Origin: a virus
Taxonomy: Duplodnaviria > Heunggongvirae > Uroviricota > Caudoviricetes
Strand: one strand, 5' to 3'
Length of the DNA: 36,503 bases
Virus record (IMG/VR): IMGVR_UViG_2718218136_000002
Coordinates: 1-36,503 of that record
Part shown: positions 1-36,503 of the stretch, piece after piece
How positions within the stretch are numbered: the first letter of the stretch is position 1
How the letters are laid out: each line of letters starts with the position of its first letter
Program-made: the position numbers and the translations under genes
Notes under the pieces: model-generated
What the model saw: the letters and a program-made list of their open reading frames with translations, nothing else
What the model was told of the DNA's origin: nothing
Database searches by the model: none

Positions 1-690
1 GTGAATGAGTTCAAGGGGATATTATTTGATAAAAATAGAAGGTCTTCAGAGTTTCTACTTAATTTTTATGAATGTTGCTATGAGTTTTTACCAAGAGCGC
101 AGCCTCAGGATAAAATCGAAAGCTATAATTCAGCACTGCAAGCTTTCTCCATCTTTTGTTCATCTACGTTGATACATAATAATATAGGCTTTGATTTCAA
201 ATTATTTCCAGAAGTCAAACTGTGTGGGGAAAATCTTGAAACGGTATTCAAATATAAAAATGGCGATGATGTCCGGGAGATAGCCAAAATTAACATTGCT
301 CTCCAAAAAGAAGAGGATGGTTTATATAATTTAGGTGGATTGGATTTTAAGGGATGCTTCTTTTCTGGACAGAACTTCAGTAACTATGATATTCAATATG
401 TGAACTGGGGAACGTCATTGTTTGATCTTGATACTCCGTGTATTTTTAATGCGCCTGCTTACAACAAGAGTAATGAAAAATCATTAAAACCTGTGAGCGA
501 AAACGGTTTAAGTGGAGTCTTGACTGATCGTAATAATAAAATAAAACTCATCACGGGCGTGGCACCATTCGATGATATTTTATTTATGGATGATGACTTT
601 GATGATAGTTCCTCTGAGGATGATCCCGTTGAGAATAGTCCTGTTGTGACTAGTCCCGTTGTATCAAGTTCTAAAAGCAGTTTTCAATGA
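1..690 (+). CDS. Hypothetical protein, possibly 5-prime truncated by the window edge; AT-rich, with an acidic Ser/Asp-rich C-terminal tail
   Basis: Open frame of 229 codons from position 1 (GTG) to a stop at 688-690. Composition is visibly AT-rich compared with the prophage. No family recognised. Confidence 0.4.
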   Translation: MNEFKGILFDKNRRSSEFLLNFYECCYEFLPRAQPQDKIESYNSALQAFSIFCSSTLIHNNIGFDFKLFPEVKLCGENLETVFKYKNGDDVREIAKINIALQKEEDGLYNLGGLDFKGCFFSGQNFSNYDIQYVNWGTSLFDLDTPCIFNAPAYNKSNEKSLKPVSENGLSGVLTDRNNKIKLITGVAPFDDILFMDDDFDDSSSEDDPVENSPVVTSPVVSSSKSSFQ

Positions 691-776
691 TTAATAAATG
701 GCTATTTTTACAAAGAGATAATAACGTAGATTGAAACAATATGTATTATTGATTGATTAAACGGGATTATTTTTTA

Positions 777-870
777 CACTACAACCATTTTGCTGCCACT
801 ACCAAAGAAAAAGGGGCTACGCTTTCACGTAACCCCTTGATTTATTTGTTGAGCTGGCGGTGTCTGAATT
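777..870. repeat. Second, degenerate copy of the ssrA 3-prime flank: terminator hairpin plus decayed tmRNA 3-prime end (old att remnant)
   Basis: 795-848 matches 35392-35445 with one mismatch. The next ~15 bp (tgttgagctggcggtg) is a decayed version of tggtggagctggcggg. About 12-20 bp upstream (ccattttgc-gccactacc) is also shared with 35374-35391. Confidence 0.7.
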
Positions 871-984
871 GGTGCTGTAATTGGTTGAAATATTTATTCT
901 AATGTCTGGTTCAACTTTCCTTAGCTGCCTGAAAGTTTTTTTGATCTTACCCATCAATAATAGGGTTACGGTACACCACGCCTG

Positions 985-1225
985 ACTGATGAACTGCGTG
1001 CTCAGGGTTACCTCTTCAACGTAAAACCGTGGCAGGAGGTCCGGACTGAAAAAACTGCTCAGGACATTATCGGCGGTGGACGCACGGGTAGTCTGTAAAC
1101 CGAACCGACTGGGGCGCAGTATGTGGCATCTTGTCGTGCTGTTGGAGGAGCTGTGCAAACGTGGTATTAACTTTCGTGCTCTGGCCCAATCTATATTTGC
1201 CCAACAATGGGGGGACGAATGCTGT
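985..1225 (+). pseudogene. Serine DNA invertase (Pin/Gin/Hin family) fragment, frame-disrupted
   Basis: Translated fragment KPNRLGRSMWHLVVLLEELCKRGINFRALAQSI resembles LDRLGRSMRHLVTLIEELRQRGVNFRSLTDSI of the intact invertase at 26978-27544. A DNA stretch aaaaaactgctcaggacattatcggcggtgga is nearly identical to 27111-27142. The frame is broken and both N- and C-terminal parts are missing. Confidence 0.6.
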
Positions 1226-1593
1226 AAAAGTAAAAGAATCTGCGATCTCAAAGTTATTGTGTTATTTTTATGTGAGCAGAAGATATTCATCAGAAACGAT
1301 TATGTAAATCATTTTATTTTGCCGACGGCCTGATTGTCGAAAGAAAAGAATACCCCCGTATTCCCTGAATAGATTGACTTTTTTATCCAACCATACTTCA
1401 GCGCACTGCGTTTAAAAAATGCTTCTTTCTTATGTGGAATATCATCATTTCATCATGATGTCTTTGATGAGCGGTGAACACAATACACTTGCGCTGTCTC
1501 TTCAGGATGAATCCCCTGGTCTGGTGCCTGTGGGCTGATGTTGCAGCAGAGCTAAGGTCGCTTAAACGCTACTCAGTATTCACTTTTCAGAGG

Positions 1594-4500
1594 ATGAAAT
1601 TTATGAACAGGACCAGTCCCCATTATTGTCGCCGCTCAGTACTTTCCTTATTGATATCTGCCTTGATATATGCCCCGCCTGGGATGACGGCCTTCACTCC
1701 TGATGTTATTGGTGTGGTAAACGATGAGACTGTAGATGGCAGCCAAAGAGTAGATGAACGAGGTACAACAAATAACACTCATATTATCAACCATGGCCAG
1801 CAGAATGTTCATGGCGGGGTATCTAATGGAAGTCTTATTGAATCGGGTGGATATCAAGATGTAGGAAGTCATAACAATTTTGTGGGGCAGGCTAATAATA
1901 CAACCATTAACGGAGGAAGACAGACAATTCATGACGGGGGCATTTCCACCGGTACGATAATCGACAGTGGCAATCAGGACGTTTATACAGGTGGTATCAG
2001 CAATGGAACGACAATTAAGGGTGGTAATTCACACATAAGTGGGGGGACTGCGAATGGAACCATCATTGATGGTGGAGGGCAGAAAGTAACAACTCAGGGG
2101 CATGTTGATGGTACAACGATAAATAAGTCCGGTTATCAGGACATCACGCAAGGAAGTATTGCAACGAACACAATCATAAATGGTGGACGACAGTATGTTG
2201 AACAGAGCACAGTAGGAACAACCACCATTAAAAATGGCGGTGAGCAAAGAGTATATGAAAGCCATGCGCTGGACACGACGATTGAAGGTGGAACTCAGTC
2301 TCTGAATAATAAGTCAACGGCAAAAATACTCAGATCTATTCTGGTGGTACGCAAATTGTTGATTACACCAGCTCCTCGGATGTTATTGAAGTTTATTCCG
2401 GTGGCGTGCTTGATGTTAGTGGTGGTACGGCAACAAATGTTACCCAGCACGATGGTGCAATTTTAAAAACAAACACTAACGGTACGACGGTGAGCGGTAC
2501 GAATAGTGAAGGTGCATTCTCCATCCACAATCACGTGGCAGACAATGTGTTGCTGGAAAACGGTGGTCATTTAGACATAAACGCATATGGTTCGGCAAAC
2601 AAGACGATTATTAAAGATAAAGGAACAATGTCAGTTTTAACGAATGCTAAAGCTGATGCGACCCGAATAGATAACGGCGGGGTAATGGATGTTACCGGAA
2701 ACGCGACCAATACCATAATCAATGGTGGTACACAGAATATTAATAATCATGGTATTGCCACGGGTACCAATATCAACGGCGGAACGCAAAATATCAAGAG
2801 CGGCGGGAAAGCTGACACGACAATTATATCCTCCGGGAGCCGGCAGGTTGTTGAGAAAGATGGTACGGCAACTGGCAGCAATATTAGCGCCGGAGGCTCG
2901 CTGATTGTCTATACCGGTGGTATTGCACATGGGGTTAACCAGGAGACGGGCAGTGCTTTAGTTGCCAACACGGGCGCAGGGACTGATATTGAAGGATACA
3001 ACAAGCTCTCTCACTTCACTATTACCGGAGGGGAGGCTAATTATGTTGTGCTGGAAAATACCGGCGAACTGACGGTAGTGGCTAAAACCTCGGCGAAAAA
3101 TACTACCGTTGATGCTGGCGGTAAGCTGATTGTCCAGAAGGAGGCTAAAACAGATACCACCAGACTTAATAATGGTGGCGTTCTGGAGGTTCAGGACGGT
3201 GGTGAGGCTAAGCATGTTGAGCAACAATCCGGCGGCGCATTAATTGCTTCCACAACTTCCGGAACCCTTATCGAAGGAACCAACAGTTATGGTGATGCTT
3301 TCTACATCAGGAATTCAGAAGCTAAAAATGTAGTGCTGGAAAACGCTGGCTCATTAACAGTCGTCACTGGTTCCCGGGCAGTTGATACGATTATTAATGC
3401 CAACGGCAAAATGGATGTTTATGGAAAAGATGTTGGCACTGTACTCAATAGTGCTGGCACCCAAACAATATATGCCAGTGCCACTTCTGATAAAGCAAAT
3501 ATCAAAGGTGGCAAGCAAACGGTATATGGATTAGCCACTGAGGCAAATATCGAAAGTGGTGAACAAATTGTTGATGGTGGGTCAACAGAGAAAACACACA
3601 TCAATGGTGGCACGCAAACCGTTCAGAATTATGGTAAGGCAATCAATACCGATATCGTCTCTGGCCTACAACAAATTATGGCAAACGGGACAGCGGAAGG
3701 TTCCATTATTAATGGGTGTTCACAGGTAGTTAATGAGGGCGGTCTGGCTGAAAACTCGGTGCTTAATGACGGCGGCACACTCGATGTGCGGGAGAAAGGC
3801 AGCGCAACGGGGATACAGCAGAGTAGCCAGGACGCTTTGGTTGCAACCACCAGGGCGACGCGGGTCACAGGAACACGCGCGGATGGCGTCGCGTTCAGCA
3901 TCGAGCAGGGTGCGGCGAACAATATCCTGCTGGCAAATGGCGGCGTGTTAACCATGGAGTCAGACACCTCTTCTGACAAAACACAGGTCAATACGGGCGG
4001 ACGGGAGATCGTCAAAACAAAAGCCACTGCGACAGGCACGACGCTCACCGGCGGCGAACAAATCGTCGAGGGGGTGGCGAATGAGACAACGATTAACGAC
4101 GGCGGAATACAAACAGTTTCAGCTAACGGAGAGGCAATAAAAACAAAGATCAATGAAGGCGGTACGCTGACAGTTAACGATAATGGCAAAGCGACAGATA
4201 TCGTCCAGAACAGCGGTGCCGCTCTCCAGACGAGCACGGCTAACGGTATTGAAATCAGCGGTACTCACCAGTACGGCACTTTTTCCATTTCCGGCAATTT
4301 AGCGACCAATATGTTGCTGGAAAATGGCGGTAATTTATTGGTATTAGCAGGTACCGAAGCTCGCGACTCCACGGTTGGCAGCGGTGGAGCCGCCAACGGC
4401 AGTTATCGCAGCAACGGGCTGGGCGGTCACATTGAAACCGGGATGCGATTTACCGATGGTAACTGGAACCTGACGCCGTATGCATCGTTAACGGGGGTTC

Positions 4501-4863
4501 ACCGCTGATAACCCTGAATATCATTTATCCAATGGCATGGAATCGAAATCAGTCGATACCCGCAGTTTATATCGTGAACTGGGTGCAACGCTGAGTTACA
4601 ACATGCGTCTGGGGAACGGTATGGAAGTTGAGCCGTGGCTGAAGGCGGCTGTGCGCAAAGAATTTGTCGATGATAACCGGGTGAAAGTGAATAGTGACGG
4701 TAATTTCGTCAATGATTTGTCGGGCAGACGTGGAATATACCAGGCAGGTATTAAAGCCTCATTCAGCAGTACGTTAAGCGGGCATCTTGGGGTGGGGTAT
4801 AGCCATGGTGCCGGTGTGGAATCCCCGTGGAACGGGGTAGCTGGTGTGAACTGGTCGTTCTGA
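1594..4863 (+). pseudogene. Autotransporter adhesin (AIDA/YpjA-like passenger repeats plus C-terminal beta-domain), disrupted by frame changes
   Basis: Signal-peptide-like start (MKFMNRTSPHYCRRSVLSLLISALIYAPPGMTA). Long arrays of about 19-aa repeats (..G.ATNT.INGG.Q.V..). Three consecutive ORFs in different frames (1474-2466, 2406-4508, 4537-4863). The last ends in the typical autotransporter terminal W-S-F, but the beta-domain is too short. Confidence 0.6.
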
Positions 4864-4874
4864 CCATCAACGAA

Positions 4875-4896
4875 AAAGCCCACATCTGTGGGCTTT
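4875..4896. terminator. Hairpin with flanking A- and T-tracts just after the autotransporter stop (possible bidirectional terminator)
   Basis: aaagcccaca tc tgtgggcttt forms a perfect 10-bp stem. A run of 5 T follows on the minus strand and 3 T on the plus strand. Confidence 0.4.
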
Positions 4897-5022
4897 CATG
4901 TCACCAGGAGCCGCGGCTCCTTTGCGTATCCTTTTATGTCTCTTCACCGTCTGGTCGGTGTCCTGCTGAGACTGCTAACTTCCTGTTTTTATTGGTGTTG
5001 TCCTTATACCGTCCAATCATGA

Positions 5023-5068
5023 TTGGTGGAGCTGGCGGGAGTTGAACCCGCGTCCGAAATTCCTACAT
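5023..5068. repeat. Distal att core: direct repeat of the tmRNA 3-prime end (prophage boundary on the integrase side)
   Basis: ttggtggagctggcgggagttgaacccgcgtccgaaattcctacat is identical to 35443-35488, which lies inside the tmRNA 3-prime end. Confidence 0.85.
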
Positions 5069-5185
5069 ACCATTTTTACACTAACGAAATCATATTTTTT
5101 CATTTTAAATCATGATGTTATTGTTAATCTGTGTTTGCTTGTTTTACTTGTTTTTAGTGCTCTGCCGCCAAAGTGCCGCCATTTA

Positions 5186-6211
5186 TTAGCGATGCCAGTT
5201 GAGGTTATGAAGTGGATTTTTGGTAACGGCATCTTCCAGATGATCCGGTGCAAAATGGGCATAAATCATGGTCATTTTAATATCAGCGTGCCCTAAAATA
5301 TCCCTCAATACTAAAATGTTTCCGCCGTTCATCATAAAGTGGCTGGCGAAAGTGTGGCGCAGAACGTGGGTACATTGACCTTCAGGTAGTTCAATTCCAG
5401 CTCGTTTTACCGCACGCTCAAAAGCCTTTCGGCATGGTGTGAATAACTTTCCCCTGTTTTTGGGTAATTCTTCATACAGTTCCTGAGAAATAGGAACAGT
5501 TCGGTTTTTCTTTCCTTTTGTTTTGGTATAGGTAATTCGATACTTTGATATCTGGTTACCTTGCAGGTTTTCGGCTTCGCTCCATCTTGCCCCGGTTGCC
5601 AGACAAATCTTGGCAATCATTAGCAGACTGGGACTTTGAGATTCAGCACAAGCGTCAAGCAGGCGTTTGATTTCATCAGCAGCAAGGAACGCCAGTTCAC
5701 CCTCTGCAATTTTGAAAGTTGGCAGACCGGCGAGAGGGTTGGGTGCAGACCAATGTCCCAGCTTTTTCAGTGTGCCAAAAACTGAGGATAGGTTACGTTG
5801 TTCAAGGTTCACCGTTCTGGGCTTAACTGGTGACATGAGCACACCATCTTCGTTTTTGACCTCACCTTTTAATCTGGCTTCCCGGTATTTTGTGAAATCA
5901 CCTGCTGTCAATTCAGAAGCGATGGGATCGCCAAGCCCATTACAAATGATTTTTAACTTAGCCATTAATCGCTTAGGGTCAGCGAGTGTCTGACCGTACA
6001 GGGAATACCATTGCTCAATCACTTCTGACAGTTGTCGCCGATCTTCCTTTTCTCCCAGCCAAGGTTTCTTGTTTACCTCGTCCATGGTGAAATTCTCAAA
6101 CGCAATGGCTTCGCCTTTCGTCGCAAATTGTTTGCGTACGCGTTTGCCATCTCGCCCGTTTGGGTAGCATTCACATAACCACTTTCCGTTCGGCTGTTTT
6201 CTGATGGTCAT
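5186..6211 (-). CDS. int: Phage integrase, tyrosine recombinase (P2/186 Int type)
   Basis: 341 aa with the C-terminal catalytic region ...HVLRHTFASHFMMNGGNILVLRDILGHADIKMTMIYAHF (R..H..Y motif context). Lies next to the att repeat. Confidence 0.93.
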   Translation of the reverse strand: MTIRKQPNGKWLCECYPNGRDGKRVRKQFATKGEAIAFENFTMDEVNKKPWLGEKEDRRQLSEVIEQWYSLYGQTLADPKRLMAKLKIICNGLGDPIASELTAGDFTKYREARLKGEVKNEDGVLMSPVKPRTVNLEQRNLSSVFGTLKKLGHWSAPNPLAGLPTFKIAEGELAFLAADEIKRLLDACAESQSPSLLMIAKICLATGARWSEAENLQGNQISKYRITYTKTKGKKNRTVPISQELYEELPKNRGKLFTPCRKAFERAVKRAGIELPEGQCTHVLRHTFASHFMMNGGNILVLRDILGHADIKMTMIYAHFAPDHLEDAVTKNPLHNLNWHR

Positions 6212-6212
6212 A

Positions 6213-6845
6213 TCAAAGGCTCTTAATGATTTTCAGTGCGCGGCCTATTACCTTAATGTCATCCAGTTCGCACTCAAACGATGAATCATCCTGATGCACT
6301 ACTAATCTGTTTCCCGGGAGTCGTGTCAATTTTACAATGCTTTTTATCCCGTCGATGTCCACTAACCACGTACCATTTACTGGTGGTGTTTGGTTGCGAT
6401 CTATTAAATAAGAATCACCAGAAGTAGTCACCAGCAGCAGGTTGCTTGAGTCTGAGGGGAGTATGCTGCTATCAATGATTGCTTTTCCAGCATCGACCAA
6501 TAAACCACCGTTGAGAGTTGCCTTTTCAATTTCAGGAGATACAAGCTCAGAAAGAGGTTTAACCTTGCTGGGGTTCACGGAATTGATATTTTTTTTAGGG
6601 TCAATGTTTGAACCTGGCTCGCCCTGTCCGGTGGTTAGCCATAGTAAAGAAACTCCTGTTTCCAAGGCGCACTGAATCACCCATTCTGCGGGAAAGCTAT
6701 CTCTTAAGTATCTGTTTGCCATAGTGCTTTTTGATGCACCTAAGTGATCGCAAAGTTGCTGTCTGGACTTGAAATCATAGGCTGCCATTAGTCTATGGAT
6801 AGCCTCTCTTCCCCCTGTATTCTCGCCAGCTTTTACCTGTATCAT
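6213..6845 (-). CDS. cI: 186-type CI immunity repressor
   Basis: 210 aa. N-terminal ...NRYLRDSFPAEWVIQCALETGVSLLWLTTGQGEP matches the 186 CI-type HTH region as I recall it. Sits directly upstream of int on the same strand. Confidence 0.8.
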   Translation of the reverse strand: MIQVKAGENTGGREAIHRLMAAYDFKSRQQLCDHLGASKSTMANRYLRDSFPAEWVIQCALETGVSLLWLTTGQGEPGSNIDPKKNINSVNPSKVKPLSELVSPEIEKATLNGGLLVDAGKAIIDSSILPSDSSNLLLVTTSGDSYLIDRNQTPPVNGTWLVDIDGIKSIVKLTRLPGNRLVVHQDDSSFECELDDIKVIGRALKIIKSL

Positions 6846-6857
6846 TTCTTAATCCTA

Positions 6858-6909
6858 TTGACGTATCAAATATTGGATCGTAGTATCTCGATGTATCAAA
6901 TATTGAATC
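6858..6909 (+). promoter_or_regulatory. pR-like early promoter with two 17-bp direct repeat operator candidates
   Basis: TTGACG (6858-6863), 17-bp spacer, TAGTAT (6881-6886). Repeats GTATCAAATATTG(G/A)ATC at 6863-6879 and 6893-6909, 30 bp apart, lie between divergent cI and apl. Confidence 0.45.
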
Positions 6910-9650: not shown

Positions 9651-12061
9651 GTCATGACGATATGAACAATTGCAGCGGCTTTAACGAGGCCGCCGCAGCA
9701 TTTTCATGGAACGGCTCGAAAAAGGCCATTAACCCTTATCTGGACCCGGCGGAAGTTGCGCCGGAGTCTGCACTTTCAAACCTGATCACTCTGTACGCTG
9801 CCGATAACGAGCAGGAACAACTGCGCCGCGAGGCACTGAGTGAGCAGGTCTGGGAGCGTTATTTCTTTAATGAATCCCGTGATCCTGTCCAGCGCGAAAT
9901 GGAGCAGGATAAGCTCATTAGCCGGGCAAAGCTGGCGCATGAGCAGCAGCGTTTTAATCCGGACATGGTCATTCTGGCGGACGTAAACGCCCAGCCTTCC
10001 CATATCAGCAAGCCGCTGATGCAACGTATTGAATACTTCAGCAGCCTGGGCAGGCCAAAGGCTTATTCCCGCTATTTGCGTGAGACGATTAAGCCATGTC
10101 TGGAGCGACTGGATTGTGTACGTGACAGTCAGCTATCTGTTTCTTTCCGTTTTATGGCAAGCCATCAAGGGCTGGAGGGTCTGCTGATCCTGCCTGAAAT
10201 GAGCCAGGATCAGGTGAAACGCCTGTCCACCCTGGTAGCAGCGCATATGAGCATGTGTCTTGAGGACGCTTGTGGTGATTTGTATGCCACCGATGACGTT
10301 AAGCCAGAAGAAATCCGCAAGACATGGGAAAAGGTGGCAGCGGAAACCCTGCGTCTGGATGTTATCCCGCCTGCGTTTGAGAAACTTCGTCGGAAAAGAA
10401 ACCGCCGCAAACCAGTGCCCTATGAACTCATCCCGGGTTCGCTGGCGCGTATGTTGTGTGCCGACTGGTGGTATCGGAAATTATGGAAGATGCGTTGCGA
10501 ATGGCGGGAAGAGCAGTTGCGTGCTGTCTGCCTGGTCAGCAAAAAAGCATCCCCCTATGTCAGCTATGAAGCCGTGATGCATAAACGTGAGCAGCGCCGT
10601 AAGTCGCTGGAGTTTTTTCGTTCTCATGAACTGGTGAACGAAGACGGCGACACGCTGGATATGGAAGATGTGGTAAACGCCAGCAGCAGCAACCCGGCGC
10701 ATCGCCGCAATGAGATGATGGCCTGTGTTAAAGGTCTGGAGCTTATCGCGGAAATGCGCAGTGACTGTGCCGTTTTCTACACTATCACCTGTCCGTCGCG
10801 TTTCCATTCCACGCTCAATAACGGCAGACCAAACCCGACCTGGACAAACGCGACGGTAAGACAAAGTAGCGATTATCTGGTCGGCATGTTTGCTGCATTT
10901 CGTAAGGCTATGCATAAAGCCGGGTTGCGCTGGTATGGCGTGCGGGTAGCTGAGCCGCATCATGACGGTACTGTGCACTGGCATCTCATGTGTTTCATGC
11001 GTAAAAAAGACCGCCGAGCCATCACTGCATTACTGCGTAAGTTTGCCATCCGTGAAGACCGTGAGGAGCTGGGCAATAACACGGGACCACGCTTTAAGTC
11101 TGAGCTGATAAACCCGCGCAAAGGTACGCCAACAAGCTATATCGCGAAATACATCAGTAAGAACATTGACGGGCGTGGTCTGGCTGGGGAGATCAGCAAG
11201 GAAACGGGTAAATCCCTGCGTGATAACGCTGAATACGTTAATGCCTGGGCGTCTCTGCATCGTGTTCAGCAATTCCGCTTCTTTGGCATTCCGGGGCGTC
11301 AGGCTTACCGTGAACTGCGATTGCTGGCTGGTCAGGCGGCAAGGCAACAGGGTAACAAAAAAGCAGGTGCGCCGGTACTGGATAACCCGCGTCTTGATGC
11401 AATCCTGGCTGCTGCTGATGCTGGTTGTTTTGCCACCTACATCATGAAGCAGGGCGGCGTACTGGTTCCCCGCAAATATCACCTCATCAGAACTGCTTAT
11501 GAAATCAACGAAGAACCGACCGCATATGGCGATCACGGTATTCGTATTTATGGCATCTGGTCACCCATTGCAGAGGGCAAGATCTGCACTCATGCGGTGA
11601 AGTGGAAAATGGTTCGTAAGGCCGTTGACGTTCAGGAGGCGGCAGCCGACCAGGGCGCTTGCGCCCCTTGGACTCGTGGCAATAACTGTCCCCTTGCTGA
11701 AAATTTGAACCAACAGGAGAAAGATAAATCAGCTGATGGGGACACCAGAACGGATATTACCTGCATGGATGACAAGGAGTTGCACGATTACCTGCACAGT
11801 ATGAACAAAAAAGAGCGCCGGGAACTGGCTGCAAGGTTACGTCTGGTTAAACCGAAACGGCGTAGAGACTACAAACAGCGAATTACAGACTATCAACGAC
11901 AGCAGCTCGTCTATGAACTGAAGTCCAGAGGATTTGATGGCAGCGAGAAAGAGGTCGATTTACTCCTTCGCGGCGGCAGTATTCCGTCAGGAGCAGGCTT
12001 GCGTATCTTCTATCGGAACCAGCGTTTGCAGGAAGATGATAAGTGGCGAAACCTGTATTAA
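9647..12061 (+). CDS. A: Replication initiation endonuclease (P2 gpA / 186 A, rolling-circle initiator)
   Basis: About 805 aa with the conserved catalytic region ...[14 protein letters not shown].... Position after the early genes. Confidence 0.9.
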
Positions 12062-14073: not shown

Positions 14074-15836
14074 AAAATCTCCACAATATTGCTGGTATTG
14101 GCGGACTCGCCCTGCAGCGGTTCGTTAAACAGTGCGTGCATGGTTGCCCATGCCAGATCGGCATGGCTGGCTTCTTCGCTGCGGCTGGCTTCGTAGGTCG
14201 GGCGGTTGCCACTGGCGGTGGTGGCGCGACGGATTGCCATGAATGACTGCGCAATGTCGGTATGTCCGGCGTCAAACTCCAGACGGCGGTGGCTGATAAT
14301 GTCGTAGGCCTTGAGTACCAGGGCGTTTTTAACGTTGGGGTTGTAGACAAACTCCCGGACGGCAGGAAAGAACGCTTTCACGTTCTCGTAAACCCCGTGA
14401 CCGACGCCGGTTGAGTCGATACCGATATAGGTCACGTTGTACTGTTCGGTCAGTTTTTTGATGGCGTCAGCCTGGGCGCGGAAGTCCATCCCGCGCCACT
14501 GGTGACGCTCAAGAATGCGGAACTTACCGCCTGGCACGGCTGGCGGTGCCACCACCACGCATCCGGCGCTGTCGCCGTTCTGCGTACCTTTTGCCGGGTC
14601 ATAACCGATCCACACTTCGCGCCAGCCAAACGGGCGCAGGGCCAGTGCATGAAAGTCGGTCCAGACTTCCCAGCTGTCCACCATGCACGCCTGCAATTCG
14701 CTGAGCGGGAACACAGATGCGAGATCGTCAACGAACTCGCACATCAGCAGGTTCTGGTATTCGTCCGGGCTGTACTCCATGCGCAACTGGTCGAGGTCGA
14801 ACAGGTTACAGCCGCCGCGTACCGCATCTTCCACGGTGACTATCTGGCGGTATTGCCCGTCTGCGCACAGCAGGCCGGGGGCCAGATTGCTGTGGGACAG
14901 GTCGATGTCCACCTTATCGGCTTTGTTGCGCCCACGGTTGAACAGCGCACCGGACCAGAACGGATAAGCACTGTGTGTCAGGCTGGATGGCGTGGAAAAA
15001 TAGGTCTGTCGCCATTTCTTGTGAATAGCCATACCGGAAGCCACTTTGCGCAGCTCCTGGAATTTCGGTATCCAGAAATATTCATCCAGATACAGGTTGC
15101 CGTGGTAACTCTGGGCCGTGCGGGCATTGGTGCCGAGGAAATACAGTGTGGCCCCGTTGGGAAGCACCATCGGATCGCCTTTCAGCTCCACCTCCACTTC
15201 TTTGGCGAAGTCGATGATGTACTGCTTAAAGACGTGAGCCTGTGCCTTACTGGCAGAAAGGAAAATCTGGTTACGTCCGGTAAGCAGGGCGTCAATCAGG
15301 GCTTCACGGGCAAAGTAAAAGGTCGCACCGATCTGGCGTGACTTCAGCAGGTTGCGGATGCGGTTGGTTTTTCCGGCTTCCCACCAGTGGCGCTGATAGT
15401 TGAACATGGAGGAATGGAAGATTTCTTCCAACTTCTCAATCTGTTCATCGGTGAAAACGTTCTTTTCCGGCTGACGACGCGGGCCTTTGTTGCGGTTGGC
15501 GACGTTAGGGTTTAAGTCGGCTTCGTTGCCGCCATTGTTAAACTTGCCGATCCGCGCATGGCGCTCCGACTGGCGCGCCAGCAGATCAATCTCTTTGAAA
15601 TCTTTCCCTTCTTTGTGCTCCTTCATAATGAGCTGGCAGTAGCGTGCGGCGGTGGTGAGCTGCATCTGATCCAGCGGCCCATAGTCACCCCACTTGTCGC
15701 GTTTTTTCCAGCTGTGAACGGTTGCAACTTTCTCGCCCAGCATTTCAGCAATGCGGGCTACGCGGTATCCCTGAAAGTACAGCAGCATGGCCTGCCGACG
15801 GGGATCGAGATCTGCGGGTGTCAGTGTGGTGTTCAT
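14070..15836 (-). CDS. P: Terminase large (ATPase) subunit (P2 gpP-like)
   Basis: 588 aa. Start overlaps the Q stop. Divergent from O as in P2. Confidence 0.93.
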   Translation of the reverse strand: MNTTLTPADLDPRRQAMLLYFQGYRVARIAEMLGEKVATVHSWKKRDKWGDYGPLDQMQLTTAARYCQLIMKEHKEGKDFKEIDLLARQSERHARIGKFNNGGNEADLNPNVANRNKGPRRQPEKNVFTDEQIEKLEEIFHSSMFNYQRHWWEAGKTNRIRNLLKSRQIGATFYFAREALIDALLTGRNQIFLSASKAQAHVFKQYIIDFAKEVEVELKGDPMVLPNGATLYFLGTNARTAQSYHGNLYLDEYFWIPKFQELRKVASGMAIHKKWRQTYFSTPSSLTHSAYPFWSGALFNRGRNKADKVDIDLSHSNLAPGLLCADGQYRQIVTVEDAVRGGCNLFDLDQLRMEYSPDEYQNLLMCEFVDDLASVFPLSELQACMVDSWEVWTDFHALALRPFGWREVWIGYDPAKGTQNGDSAGCVVVAPPAVPGGKFRILERHQWRGMDFRAQADAIKKLTEQYNVTYIGIDSTGVGHGVYENVKAFFPAVREFVYNPNVKNALVLKAYDIISHRRLEFDAGHTDIAQSFMAIRRATTASGNRPTYEASRSEEASHADLAWATMHALFNEPLQGESANTSNIVEIF

Positions 15837-26977: not shown

Positions 26978-27544
26978 ATGCTAATTGGCTATGTACGCGT
27001 GTCAACAAATGACCAGAACACCGATTTGCAACGTAATGCACTGAACTGCGCGGGATGTGAGCTGATTTTTGAGGACAAAATCAGTGGCACTAAGTCCGAC
27101 AGACCGGGGCTTAAAAAACTGCTCAGGACACTATCGGCAGGTGACACACTGGTTGTCTGGAAGCTGGACAGGTTGGGGCGCAGTATGCGGCATCTTGTTA
27201 CGCTGATAGAAGAGTTGCGCCAGCGCGGCGTGAATTTCCGAAGCCTGACTGACAGTATTGATACCAGCACCCCAATGGGCCGTTTCTTTTTTCATGCCAT
27301 GGGTGCCCTGGCTGAAATGGAACGCGAACTGATAGTTGAACGTACCAGGGCGGGGATTGCTGCAGCTCGTGCTAAAGGCAGAGTAGGTGGACGCCGTCCT
27401 AAGTTGACCACTGAACAGTGGGCACAGATTGGACGTTTACTCGAGGCCGGAGAATCAAGACAGCGTATTACACTGATTTTTGATGTAGGCGTTTCTACCA
27501 TTTATAGAAAATTTCCGGCAAATAAGAGCAATGAATCCCCCTGA
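26978..27544 (+). CDS. Serine DNA invertase (Gin/Pin/Hin/Cin family)
   Basis: MLIGYVRVSTNDQNTDLQRNAL... with the catalytic Ser in the YVRVST context, ..VWKLDRLGRSMRHL.., and a C-terminal HTH. ATG at 26978. Confidence 0.92.
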   Translation: MLIGYVRVSTNDQNTDLQRNALNCAGCELIFEDKISGTKSDRPGLKKLLRTLSAGDTLVVWKLDRLGRSMRHLVTLIEELRQRGVNFRSLTDSIDTSTPMGRFFFHAMGALAEMERELIVERTRAGIAAARAKGRVGGRRPKLTTEQWAQIGRLLEAGESRQRITLIFDVGVSTIYRKFPANKSNESP

Positions 27545-34818: not shown

Positions 34819-34839
34819 AACCTGCTACGGCAGGTTTTT
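34819..34839 (+). terminator. Terminator hairpin after ogr, overlapping the convergent stop of the WYL-BRCT gene
   Basis: AACCTGC tacg GCAGGTT followed by TTTATT. Confidence 0.5.
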
Positions 34840-35320
34840 ATTCATCTGGGATCTCACCCGTTTCAAGAAAATGTATAAAGCCAGGCTCATCTATGATGAT
34901 TGTGCCTTTCATCCTGGCTGCCGATACTTTTGATGGGCCTGCATTGTAACCGCAACAGAGCATCTGAAGGCTTTGGGTTACAGAGGTTCTTACCGTTAAT
35001 CCTTGTTCATTCGCCTTATCAACCAATCTTTCTTTATCTGCTTTCTTAAATCCGGTGAAACACACATCGAATGTATTTTTTTTCGGACCAGACTGCTTAG
35101 TGAGATGTGAGTAGTTTTCGGGGAGGAATGATGTGCATTCCTGAATGGCTTGTTCTGGTGAATCGTACTGTTTAAGAATGCGGTCTTTTCGGAAGGTTTT
35201 TATTCGATCGGTGTTCTTACAAATGCCCTGTATATGATTTTCGCTATAACTGATGCTCTGTATAGAGTGAACACCGATACGACCATTTGCATTGATGTAA
35301 ACAAAGTGAAGTTCTTCCAT
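34838..35320 (-). CDS. Cargo gene between ogr and the ssrA junction: small two-domain protein with a WYL-like N-terminal domain and a C-terminal BRCT-like domain; function unknown
   Basis: 160 aa. AGAGG RBS 7 nt before the ATG. N-terminal KTFRKDRI resembles the WYL-domain RtFRldRI motif. C-terminal DVCFTGF..(20 aa)..TVRTSVTQ..GYNAGPSKVSAARMKGTIIIDEPGFIHFL resembles the LigA-type BRCT fold signature. The gene looks AT-richer than the late operon. Confidence 0.6.
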   Translation of the reverse strand: MEELHFVYINANGRIGVHSIQSISYSENHIQGICKNTDRIKTFRKDRILKQYDSPEQAIQECTSFLPENYSHLTKQSGPKKNTFDVCFTGFKKADKERLVDKANEQGLTVRTSVTQSLQMLCCGYNAGPSKVSAARMKGTIIIDEPGFIHFLETGEIPDE

Positions 35321-35346: not shown

Positions 35347-35385
35347 ATGGCGACAGGCAAGATGGACGCAAAAGTCTGTCGCCAT
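35347..35385. repeat. Inverted repeat (10-bp arms, 19-bp spacer) upstream of the WYL-BRCT gene
   Basis: ATGGCGACAG ...19 nt... CTGTCGCCAT, followed by TTT on the plus strand. Lies 27 bp upstream of the WYL-BRCT start codon. Confidence 0.4.
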
Positions 35386-35401
35386 TTTGCCGCCACTACC
35401 T

Positions 35402-35433
35402 AAGAAAAAGGGGCTACGCTTTCACGTAACCCC
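35402..35433 (-). terminator. ssrA rho-independent terminator
   Basis: Hairpin GGGGTTACG tgaaag CGTAGCCCC followed by TTTTTCTT on the minus strand, immediately 3-prime of the tmRNA. Confidence 0.7.
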
Positions 35434-35442
35434 TTGATTTAT

Positions 35443-35488
35443 TTGGTGGAGCTGGCGGGAGTTGAACCCGCGTCCGAAATTCCTACAT
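35443..35488. repeat. Proximal att core (within the tmRNA 3-prime end), direct repeat of 5023-5068
   Basis: Identical 46-bp sequence. Identity breaks exactly at both ends. Confidence 0.85.
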
Positions 35489-35806
35489 CCTCGGTACTAC
35501 ATGCTTAGTCAGTCTTTACATTCGCTTGCCAGCTGCGGACGGACACGCCACTAACAAACTAGCCTGATTAAGTTTTAACGCTTCAACCCCAGGCAGGGCT
35601 TCCACGCGATCTCTTTTGGGTTTGACCTCTCTTGATCCCCGTCCTAAGAGCGGAGGCTAGGGAGAGAGGGCTCTAAGCAGGTTATTAAGCTGCTAAAGCG
35701 TAGTTTTCGTCGTTTGCGACTATTTTTTGCGGCTTTTTACGAGGCCAACCGCCCCTCGGCATGCACCTTGGGTTTCGCAAATCCCGTCGAATCCAGAATC
35801 AGCCCC
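35444..35806 (-). ncRNA. ssrA: tmRNA (transfer-messenger RNA, SsrA)
   Basis: Reverse complement starts GGGGCTGATTCTGGATTCGACGGG and ends ...CCCGCCAGCTCCACCA. Contains the tag reading frame GCAAACGACGAAAACTACGCTTTAGCAGCTTAA (ANDENYALAA). Length 363 nt. Confidence 0.95.
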
Positions 35807-36020
35807 AATGTGTAAAGGTAAGTATACCAGATTTATGAGCGCCATGACCAGCCTCAATGGCGTTATCGTTAAAGATTTAGCACCCATGTAGCCTGATTTT
35901 TATTCGATTAAGCAATGGGATGGCAACATTTGTGTCGGATGTGATAGCCAATAAGATGTTCATTCGCGCCGCCGGAGAGGGAGGCGCGGTGAGGAACTGG
36001 TCAATAATTGGAGTGCAGGT

Positions 36021-36503
36021 TTAACGGTGGGCGTTTTTCATGATACGTGCTTTATCCACCTGCCATTCGCGTTCTTTGATATCTGAACGTTTATCGTGCT
36101 GTTTTTTACCTTTGGCGACGCCGATTTTCACTTTGCACCAGGCATTTTTCCAGTACAGGGAGAGCGCCACTACGGTATAGCCTTCTCGATTGACGCGACC
36201 GTACAATGAGTCCAGTTCGCGTTGGTTGAGAAGTAACTTGCGGGTACGGGTAGGATCGCACACCACATGCGTGGAGGCCACGGCCATTGGCGTGATGTTA
36301 GCGCCAAACAGAAATGCCTCTCCGTCACGCAGAAGGACGTAGCTGTCGCTGATATTGGCTTTTCCTGCGCGCAGGGATTTAACCTCCCAGCCTTGCAGGG
36401 CAAGTCCCGCTTCGAACTCTTCTTCGATAAAGTATTCGTGACGGGCGCGCTTGTTAAGCGCGATGGTCGCTGAACCAGGTTTATGTGCTTTTTTCTTCGT
36501 CAT
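36021..36503 (-). CDS. smpB: SsrA-binding protein SmpB
   Basis: 160 aa, [72 protein letters not shown]... Start codon at the last bases of the window. Confidence 0.95.

Follow-up and report, generated by a model that had tools for sequence, protein, structure and literature searches.

The window analysed here, a stretch of 36,503 nucleotides, contains a single tmRNA gene (ARAGORN), a P2-like prophage inserted at its 3' end and, on the far side of the prophage, a series of short relics and gene remnants that extends to the chromosomal gene ypjCB. From this boundary to ssrA the features are:

1-690, plus strand: 3' part of ypjCB (DUF5508), the chromosomal boundary (Pfam E 2e-153; RefSeq)
785-851, minus strand: terminator hairpin (811-838) with one arm-type repeat, GCTGCCA (793-799); the proposed deepest layer
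852-867: degenerate remnant, about 16 nt, of the extreme ssrA 3' end (TTGAGCTGGCGG region), aligning to 35449-35465
868-922: putative right-end relic of a CP4-57-type (P4-integrase) island, by similarity to the K-12 CP4-57 right end
1037-1195, plus strand: fragment of a pinH-type DNA invertase, resolvase N-terminal part (Pfam, DNA identity, RefSeq)
1474-4863, plus strand: ypjA/ehaD-type autotransporter pseudogene with AIDA repeats and a truncated beta-barrel (ORFs, Pfam, RefSeq)
4873-5022, minus strand: putative relic, from the attP arm of a temperate phage of PhiNP/LLS type, that includes a terminator hairpin of its own (4873-4896)
5023-5068: displaced 46-nt ssrA 3' end, the distal prophage junction, an exact repeat of 35443-35488
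5069-35442: P2-like prophage (Peduoviridae, Fels-2/Elveevirus-type), apparently intact (PHROGs, identity to phage genomes, absence from strain W21)
5164-5181, plus strand: pair of putative 186-type Int arm-binding repeats, GCCGCCA-N4-GCCGCCA, in the int-side attP arm
5186-6211, minus strand: int, tyrosine integrase (phrog_1 integrase match, E 1e-83)
6213-6845, minus strand: CI repressor (PHROGs transcriptional repressor family; RefSeq "phage repressor protein CI")
35378-35395, plus strand: pair of putative 186-type Int arm-binding repeats, GTCGCCA-N4-GCCGCCA, in the ssrA-side attP arm
35408-35435, minus strand: phage-borne intrinsic terminator hairpin, the predicted present end of ssrA transcription (terminator scan, fold)
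35443-35488: ssrA-proximal 46-nt att core, the prophage junction inside ssrA, an exact direct repeat of 5023-5068
35444-35806, minus strand: ssrA, the intact tmRNA gene (ARAGORN; tag ANDENYALAA)

The ssrA gene is 100% identical to that of K-12. It owes its last 45 nt to the core copy of the prophage, which consists of these and one further nucleotide. The initial annotation had noted the tmRNA 3' end at both prophage junctions, and indeed the two 46-nt copies match without a mismatch; an exact repeat of this length is expected about 1e-19 times by chance in 36.5 kb. Removing 5069-35488 from the window leaves the sequence of strain W21, without a single mismatch over 5,068 + 1,015 bp, and in this strain 5023-5068 is part of the annotated ssrA, just as it forms the 3' end of the gene in prophage-free strains. 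W21 and the exact repeats show the insertion of the prophage to be precise, and this supports the earlier proposal that ssrA was used repeatedly and that the present prophage entered a regenerated site. A further "copy" of the core with 61% identity (9737-9782) was discarded as chance.

The 30.4 kb bracketed by the two copies hold, judged by gene content, a complete prophage of a known type, P2-like with a 186/Fels-2-type integration module at ssrA. Ten full-length ORFs have PHROGs matches, among them portal, large terminase, major head, sheath, tape measure, gpD-type tail protein and gpA-type nickase; replication, capsid and invertase genes are also present. A 25-kb query from the prophage matches deposited Peduoviridae phage genomes with about 95% identity over 94% of its length. 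With the Fels-2/SopEPhi/Elveevirus-type phages found in ssrA it shares the P2-like gene set, the 186-type integrase, the CI repressor, the core made of the ssrA 3' end, the tgccGCCActt arm repeats and the hairpin in the P arm; there is no essential difference, and the cargo ORF at 34838-35320 varies among the relatives. In modules of the 186 type, the core is flanked on both sides by at least two direct arm repeats that follow the Int-binding consensus tgccGCCActt (PMC3448106). Each arm of the prophage carries a pair of repeats matching this consensus, and the paired GYCGCCA motif occurs twice in the window, both times at a prophage end (0.15 expected). The paired repeats are kept in four phage attP regions, including those of Cartapus, SEN8 and MLG42. 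Going by the consensus, Int presumably binds these repeats. A separate repeat, 14993-15017 and 35363-35387, was treated as chance.

The hairpin that now adjoins ssrA is not confined to this prophage. On the minus strand, identical 12-bp hairpins lie at 838-811 and 35435-35408, each with a predicted folding energy of -19.8 kcal/mol (z about -5.6, with -5.55 for the prophage copy), and across 10 arms compensatory changes occur at 4 of the 12 pairs. The same hairpin is found in ssrA-adjacent phage or prophage arms of Salmonella, Yersinia, Raoultella, Sodalis, Xenorhabdus and Photorhabdus. In the latter two genera these arms carry P2-type GTCCAC repeats instead of the 186-type ones, and thus the arm repeats track the integrase and not the host. 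In the free phage genomes of Cartapus, SEN8 and MLG42 the 46-nt core lies between the two arms and is contiguous with the hairpin segment in attP. Because free phages carry the hairpin there, the terminator adjoining ssrA is phage DNA. In the cell, the hairpins probably do end ssrA transcription.

A third copy of the tmRNA core together with a terminator hairpin had been placed at 777-870. The similarity is real and the hairpin even identical, with 59 of the 61 nt of its terminator flank matching the prophage arm; it spans 785-867, however, and contains about 16 of the 46 core nucleotides, and is thus not a decayed 46-nt core. The segment 785-851 is 96% identical to 35382-35448, and the gapped alignment to the prophage/ssrA junction continues through TTTG-TTGAGCTGGCGG to position 867, so that 72 of 77 aligned positions are shared in the same register. 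At its other end (785-803) the relic keeps one 186-type arm repeat with one mismatch, and the homology to phage breaks inside the second arm repeat. Identity of 785-851 to other arms is 95% for Cartapus, 92% for SEN8, 87% for MLG42 and 86% for a Raoultella prophage. Because one 186-type arm-binding repeat is retained, 785-851 most likely goes back to an earlier Fels-2/186-type prophage, of whose P arm it would be a truncated remainder; less probably, it may be ancestral ssrA flank. W21, which lacks the prophage, has the relic exactly as in the window. In K-12 an orthologous relic lies between ypjB and pinH; it shares the left boundary and the arm-repeat remnant and is clearly more diverged, with a broken hairpin pair.

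The adjoining 852-867 looks to be the short core of an older att site of the P4/CP4-57 type, the counterpart of psaA in K-12; the expectation that the older material has an att remnant of its own is thereby borne out. From 868 onward the sequence resembles the right end of CP4-57 and not decayed ssrA: 846-922 matches the K-12 CP4-57 attR and right end with 76.6% identity over 77 nt (E 5e-10, local database), and outside the core the similarity of 868-922 is moderate, roughly 70%. The arrangement is therefore that of CP4-57-type elements, a short att core at the extreme ssrA 3' end followed by conserved right-end sequence. K-12 shares both this core and the neighbourhood (ssrA ... ypjA-pinH-ypjB/C-ileY) with the window. 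There, CP4-57 with psaA stands in front of ypjA, and the P4-type integrase gene intA lies directly downstream of ssrA with the terminator of the island. Such an integrase gene is absent from the window, as is the cryptic prophage CP4-57 itself (intA to ypjF); what is present would be the right end of an older relative, and it lies on the opposite side of ypjA from the position of CP4-57 in K-12.

A different element family is indicated directly behind the displaced 46-nt end. The 150 bp at 4873-5022 match phage LLS (E. coli K-12), in the region annotated as attP and tmRNA pseudogene, with 88% identity, and PhiNP (Citrobacter rodentium), which integrates into the 25-bp 3' end of ssrA (PMC6456863), with 86.6%. 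The hairpin at 4873-4896 (-16.8 kcal/mol, z -3.9) is placed as the terminator is in these phages, in whose attP the matching arm (86-88% identity) borders the ssrA 3' end. Unlike in the phages, ypjA follows the arm immediately, and neither a PhiNP/LLS-type integrase nor structural genes were found behind it among the ORFs and Pfam matches of the window.

Between these relics lies debris. That 871-5022 holds gene remnants had been recognized correctly: the ypjA pieces (Pfam AIDA and Autotransporter beta-domain) are split over three frames and are called "frameshifted" in RefSeq, and the pinH fragment matches Pfam Resolvase at 68-103 of 145 (E 1.3e-4), its RefSeq homologue being labelled "recombinase family protein, incomplete". 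At the DNA level the fragment is 80-82% identical to phage invertase genes and 75% to the invertase gene of the prophage. We considered pinH as part of the same old Fels-2-type prophage as 785-851 and rejected this, as the CP4-57-type junction lies between the two; neither pinH nor ypjA can be assigned to a particular element. A candidate IS3-like peptide at 961-1030 has no Pfam match, and ORF and Pfam searches found no integrase gene in 871-5022, the only one in the window being that of the prophage. Across the whole ypjA region, most E. coli genomes share 90-95% identity. As bounded here, the ypjA-pinH block appears to be flanked by att relics of different element families, and the 3' part of ypjCB forms the boundary beyond the relics and is not part of them. 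The reading of 871-5022 as one decayed island must be given up in favour of a patchwork in which at least two unrelated elements have left relics, together with the ypjA/pinH debris. The comparison with known ssrA islands that had been suggested for this interval thus returned a CP4-57-type right end at one margin, but a PhiNP/LLS-type arm at the other.

Among 5,426 complete E. coli genomes, 2,528 (47%) show the prophage-free ground state, in which 4873-5022 abuts ssrA as its 3' flank, and at least 170 have the junction of the present phage. An unoccupied site was sought with a synthetic junction of ypjCB flank, hairpin and ssrA, which was covered by none of the 5,426. For the prophage, the suggested comparison with an empty-site strain is provided by W21. 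In other Enterobacterales the search went through 80 smpB loci, Salmonella-type loci having ssrA beyond the fetched flank, and about 55 smpB-ssrA loci likewise yielded no unoccupied flank: every recovered outgroup 3' flank belonged to an element-arm class, P4-type (GCCCGC terminator), PhiNP-type or P2-type, and an S. houtenae contig has a P4-type arm and then an IS. For 785-851, a phage origin is therefore deduced from the arm repeat and the phage arms, since neither the E. coli genomes nor the outgroup loci offer a native flank by which it could be demonstrated directly.

At least three earlier mobile elements appear to have left remnants at this ssrA site. We consider it probable that elements entered it one after another by site-specific integration and formed a stack downstream of ssrA, in which the newest lies nearest the gene. 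Each incoming element would bring a copy of the ssrA 3' end and a terminator of its own; integration would therefore regenerate ssrA and push the earlier 3' end outward. Both displaced fragments, the 46 nt at 5023-5068 and the roughly 16 nt at 852-867, are in ssrA orientation. How many older events there were, and in which order, is a reconstruction, which would run as follows. The newest layer would be the P2-like prophage, whose 186/Fels-2-type integrase would have recombined within the last 46 nt of ssrA and which would now supply both the 3' end of the gene and its hairpin terminator. The second would be the displaced 46-nt end attached to the PhiNP/LLS-type arm, the ground state of about half of E. 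coli, and the third the debris with the ypjA pseudogene and the pinH fragment. Beyond it, a fourth would comprise the CP4-57-type right end with its core remnant, and the fifth the 67-nt piece 785-851, with the hairpin of the present phage and one putative Int arm repeat, from an older Fels-2/186-type P arm. Of the two arrangements named in the initial annotation, nested and tandem, it is the tandem one that applies.

It could instead be argued, in line with the initial annotation, that 785-851 is the ancestral terminator and flank of ssrA, that Fels-2-type phages carry a captured "mimic" of it and that the rest is one decayed island. The segment lies at the far end of the array beside an ssrA 3' remnant, as a displaced flank should, it is a strong intrinsic terminator by scan and fold, and none of the 5,426 E. 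coli genomes offers another candidate for a native terminator. Moreover, 186-type phages have host-derived identity blocks of 50-110 nt beyond the tRNA gene (PMC3448106). However, 785-851 contains one 186-type arm repeat and ceases to match the phages within the second. Such repeats are also present in the int-side arm, whose phage nature is beyond doubt, and the hairpin recurs in element arms from distant genera with differing flanks. A single island does not fit either, because the interval holds arms of two unrelated element families. We therefore regard this explanation as unlikely. Of the earlier idea that the prophage mimics the ssrA flank, it stands that the prophage supplies the terminator, but 785-851 is probably not the original flank being imitated, and the mimicry probably runs in the opposite direction.

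The close match of 785-867 to the prophage could also be recent, an old relic having been overwritten by recombination or gene conversion with an incoming Fels-2-type arm. The 59 identical positions out of 61 would suit this, as would the clearly more diverged K-12 orthologue with its broken pair and the 90-95% identity of the ypjA region among most E. coli genomes. Yet the prophage-free W21 has exactly the same relic, and the K-12 copy has the same left boundary and arm-repeat remnant; the structure of the relic therefore predates the divergence of the strains, and overwriting seems very improbable. That the match arose by chance, or reflects an intergenic repeat scattered through the genome with no relation to ssrA, might be suspected from the short 16-nt core remnant by itself, but is already refuted by the 72 of 77 positions shared in register with the hairpin/ssrA junction, by the paired-motif and repeat statistics, and by the copy number. 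Megablast detects the segment in 972 of 5,426 E. coli genomes; in these it occurs 1-3 times (median 1), always at the ssrA region or in a phage arm, and is thus no common intergenic repeat. The stack of successive integrations remains our preferred explanation.

Layering at ssrA is real but ordinary, a well-known feature of an integration hotspot, and tandem use of the gene was already known. Serial and tandem integration at the tmRNA gene was reportedly treated by Williams in 2003 under the title "Traffic at the tmRNA gene". Our analysis brings out no mechanism that was not known before: the phage families concerned are documented, as is the way in which elements use ssrA in series and restore it. 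ssrA is the most enriched integration target, and its tandem arrays have been catalogued (PMC4383910). With the tandem islands of Islander/TIGER the locus shares the intact gene at one end, 3' fragments in direct orientation at the element ends and restoration of the target gene by the element. It differs in that the older layers persist as arms of 60-150 bp, an integrase being present in the newest element alone. Islander demands an integrase gene of every member of a tandem array (PMC4383910), and under this rule the locus is therefore one element with relics and not a formal array. The main value lies in annotation, that is in the true ends of the prophage and in the att relics that bound the ypjA-pinH block, together with the point that a "terminator of ssrA" can belong to a phage. 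The locus is also a worked example of how an integration history can be read from arm relics of 60-150 bp, in which Int arm repeats separate phage-derived from host-derived DNA.

A more far-reaching possibility, which we put forward tentatively and hold to be somewhat less than an even prospect, is that E. coli lacks any native ssrA 3' flank and that the tmRNA end and its terminator are mobile-element DNA in every complete genome examined. If so, a fixed PhiNP-type phage arm would end ssrA in about half of the genomes, three unrelated integrase families would each bring their own structurally conserved terminator, and even the deepest relic would be a phage arm. An essential-pathway RNA would then depend permanently on phages for its termination and 3' processing. 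No deletion between the direct repeats 785-867 and 35382-35465 was seen among the 5,426 E. coli genomes. The relic arms, as 83-nt direct repeats 34.6 kb apart of which one has a putative Int arm site, could still serve as recombination substrates.

Repeated use of the ssrA 3' end by integrating elements is real at this locus, and the initial annotation, which read a prophage and an older decayed element at the same site, was largely correct overall; what had to be revised is the idea of a single older island and, probably, the direction of mimicry. The relevant features of the window, which is E. coli chromosome and in which smpB is situated behind ssrA, are:

Features of the ssrA locus
35444-35806, minus strand: ssrA (tmRNA gene), tag ANDENYALAA, the sole tmRNA gene of the window
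35443-35488: 46-nt core, made up of the 45 terminal nt of ssrA and one further base
5069-35442: P2-like prophage with a full P2-like gene set
4873-5022: PhiNP/LLS-type arm relic, 150 bp, adjoining the distal core

The core at 35443-35488 recurs at 5023-5068 with zero mismatches (repeat family D3), at a chance expectation of about 1e-19 for such an exact repeat. A further pair, 785-851 and 35382-35448, is 96% identical (repeat family D4); without the core, the flank of this third copy and the prophage arm agree at 59 of 61 positions, and a gapped alignment extends via TTTG-TTGAGCTGGCGG up to 867. Both D4 copies carry the same 12-bp hairpin and T run on the ssrA strand, each folding at -19.8 kcal/mol (z about -5.6). 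Because of the core repeat, the D4 alignment and the shared hairpin, the repeats described in the initial annotation hold with two adjustments: the third copy extends over 785-867, and it contains no more than about 16 of the 46 core nucleotides. It is not a dispersed repeat, the 94-nt relic occurring one to three times per genome in complete E. coli genomes.

The prophage encodes an integrase, a CI-type repressor, a gpA-type nickase, portal, large terminase, major head, sheath, tape measure and gpD-type tail proteins and a tail-fibre invertase, and is about 95% identical to deposited Peduoviridae genomes over 94% of a 25-kb query. The E. coli strain W21, without a prophage at ssrA, has window positions 1-5068 joined to 35489-36503 with no mismatch. 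The insertion therefore measures 30,420 bp, the prophage plus one core copy, and the comparison with a prophage-free strain that had been proposed confirms a precise empty site. Between the late-gene end and attP, in the typical P2 'moron' position, lies a 160-aa cargo ORF (34838-35320, minus strand) with a sub-threshold BRCT match (E 0.0011); in relatives it is called 'putative exonuclease', 'BRCT domain-containing protein' or 'DNA ligase', and phage SEN8 has a different small ORF in this slot. Directly upstream of the CI repressor gene, an intergenic 20-nt direct repeat (6860-6879 and 6890-6909, 30 bp apart, 90% identical; D13) probably represents operator or switch-region repeats.

In the attP of phages Cartapus, SEN8 and MLG42, hairpin segment, 46-nt core and int-side arm are contiguous. 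Thus, the hairpin now following ssrA is phage DNA, in line with the proposal that the prophage supplies the ssrA-adjacent terminator. The aligned attP regions have in common two GYCGCCA-N4-GYCGCCA heptamer pairs, one on each side of the core, which occur in the window only at 35378-35395 and 5164-5181 (0.15 expected) and match the published 186-type integrase arm-binding consensus tgccGCCActt (PMC3448106). The hairpin lies between arm repeats and core. Ten arms adjoining ssrA, from E. coli, Salmonella, Yersinia, Raoultella, Sodalis, Xenorhabdus and Photorhabdus, all keep it, and 4 of its 12 pairs show compensatory changes, which argues for selection on its structure; we infer that it acts as a terminator. 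A 25-nt similarity (80%) between 14993-15017, near the terminase/portal region, and 35363-35387 includes GTCTGTCGCCATTT, one arm-type heptamer, and is treated as chance (D8).

In plus orientation, TTGAGCTGGCGG and then TGTCTGAATTGGTGCTGTAATTGGTTG... come after 785-851, and this stretch aligns with the attR and right end of the cryptic prophage CP4-57 of K-12 (76.6% over 77 nt). What follows TTGAGCTGGCGG is not decayed ssrA. In K-12 the CP4-57 att duplication is already annotated, with the short core as pseudogene psaA, and K-12 has an orthologous relic between ypjB and pinH. Because of the end alignment, the psaA core and this relic, we read 852-922 as the attR-type junction left by an older island of CP4-57 type, whose recombination would have taken place within the final ~16 nt of ssrA. 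The segment 785-851 is then whatever adjoined ssrA downstream when that island integrated, either native flank or DNA of a still earlier element. It carries tGCTGCCActacc, a 186-type arm repeat that deviates at one position, and its homology to phage arms breaks off within the second repeat; the same repeats are present on the int-side arm, which is clearly of phage origin. Photorhabdus and Xenorhabdus have the same hairpin followed by P2-type GTCCAC repeats instead, and therefore arm repeats track the integrase, not the host. These comparisons make it fairly likely that 785-851 is a truncated P arm from an earlier Fels-2/186-type prophage rather than native flank, so that the assumed mimicry of the ssrA flank by the prophage probably runs in the reverse direction.

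At the other end of the interval, the arm relic 4873-5022 matches PhiNP at 86.6% identity and, at 88%, a phage LLS region with the annotation 'tmRNA pseudogene / attP'; a hairpin terminator of its own lies at 4873-4896 (-16.8 kcal/mol, z -3.9). PhiNP lysogenises K-12 and uses the 25-bp 3' end of ssrA for integration (PMC6456863). Related arms adjoin ssrA in E. albertii, Xenorhabdus, Proteus, Providencia and Yersinia; in the last two, large ORFs convergent on ssrA follow that look like putative tail-fibre genes. The E. albertii arm, directly after ssrA (L005 6062-6176), is 83-88% identical to the window, and no ypjA follows within the ~2 kb of available sequence, hence arm and ypjA need not have come together. 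The interval further holds a pinH invertase fragment and ypjA pieces (AIDA-repeat and beta-barrel, in three frames), and no integrase gene was found in 871-5022. With two different arm relics and such debris between them, 871-5022 combines pieces of at least two unrelated elements, and it is not the one decayed island originally proposed; these sequence relationships among the layers are directly observed. The pinH relic (1043-1176) is 75% identical in DNA to the prophage tail-fibre invertase gene (27107-27240; D2) and 80-82% to its best phage matches, P2-like/myovirus invertases, which suggests that it probably derives from yet another phage. Between the CP4-57-type end and pinH, 961-1030 (frame starting 901) encodes the peptide GYGTPRLTDELRAQGYLFNVKP, possibly a putative IS3-family transposase OrfB fragment, with no Pfam match.

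Williams reportedly described in 2003 how tRNA and tmRNA genes are used serially and in tandem, how the island restores them and how ssrA is enriched as a target. Such reuse, gene regeneration by the island and ssrA enrichment as target are established (PMC4383910), as is integration of Fels-2 and SopEPhi in ssrA, according to work cited in PMC3448106. In its attP, each tyrosine-integrase element carries the ssrA 3' end as far as its own crossover region (a 46-nt identity block in the P2-like phage, ~25 nt in PhiNP-type phages, ~16 nt in CP4-57-type islands), together with its own intrinsic terminator. Integration would replace the 3' end by the element copy, leaving ssrA intact and terminated and displacing the old end. 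As the regenerated gene is a fresh target, newer elements would lie nearest ssrA, and older ones would then be worn down to arms by deletion; from this we infer the order of integration events. The locus falls outside the strict Islander tandem-array definition because its older layers lack an integrase, although it works as that framework describes. The finding is ordinary in kind; what the analysis adds is a reading in four layers, two further arm relics and a likely phage origin for the deepest hairpin.

Among 5,426 complete E. coli genomes, ssrA directly abuts a PhiNP-type arm and the ypjA flank in 2,528 (47%), an arrangement that is the prophage-free ground state. The window's phage-arm/ssrA junction is present in at least 170 of the 5,426, K-12 has CP4-57 at this position, and ssrA plus hairpin contiguous with the ypjCB flank occurs in none of the 5,426. 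At the smpB-ssrA loci of about 55 Enterobacterales genomes (L004-L083), only element-type arms of a few classes follow ssrA, and none of these flanks is obviously unoccupied; a GCCCGC...GCGGGC terminator is common to the P4-type arms. In Salmonella and certain relatives (L008-L011), inserted genes separate smpB from ssrA, and an S. houtenae contig (L088 1-662) has a HlyD-type type I secretion component (locus tag STM2692) just upstream of ssrA, so that smpB and ssrA are over 5 kb apart at these loci.
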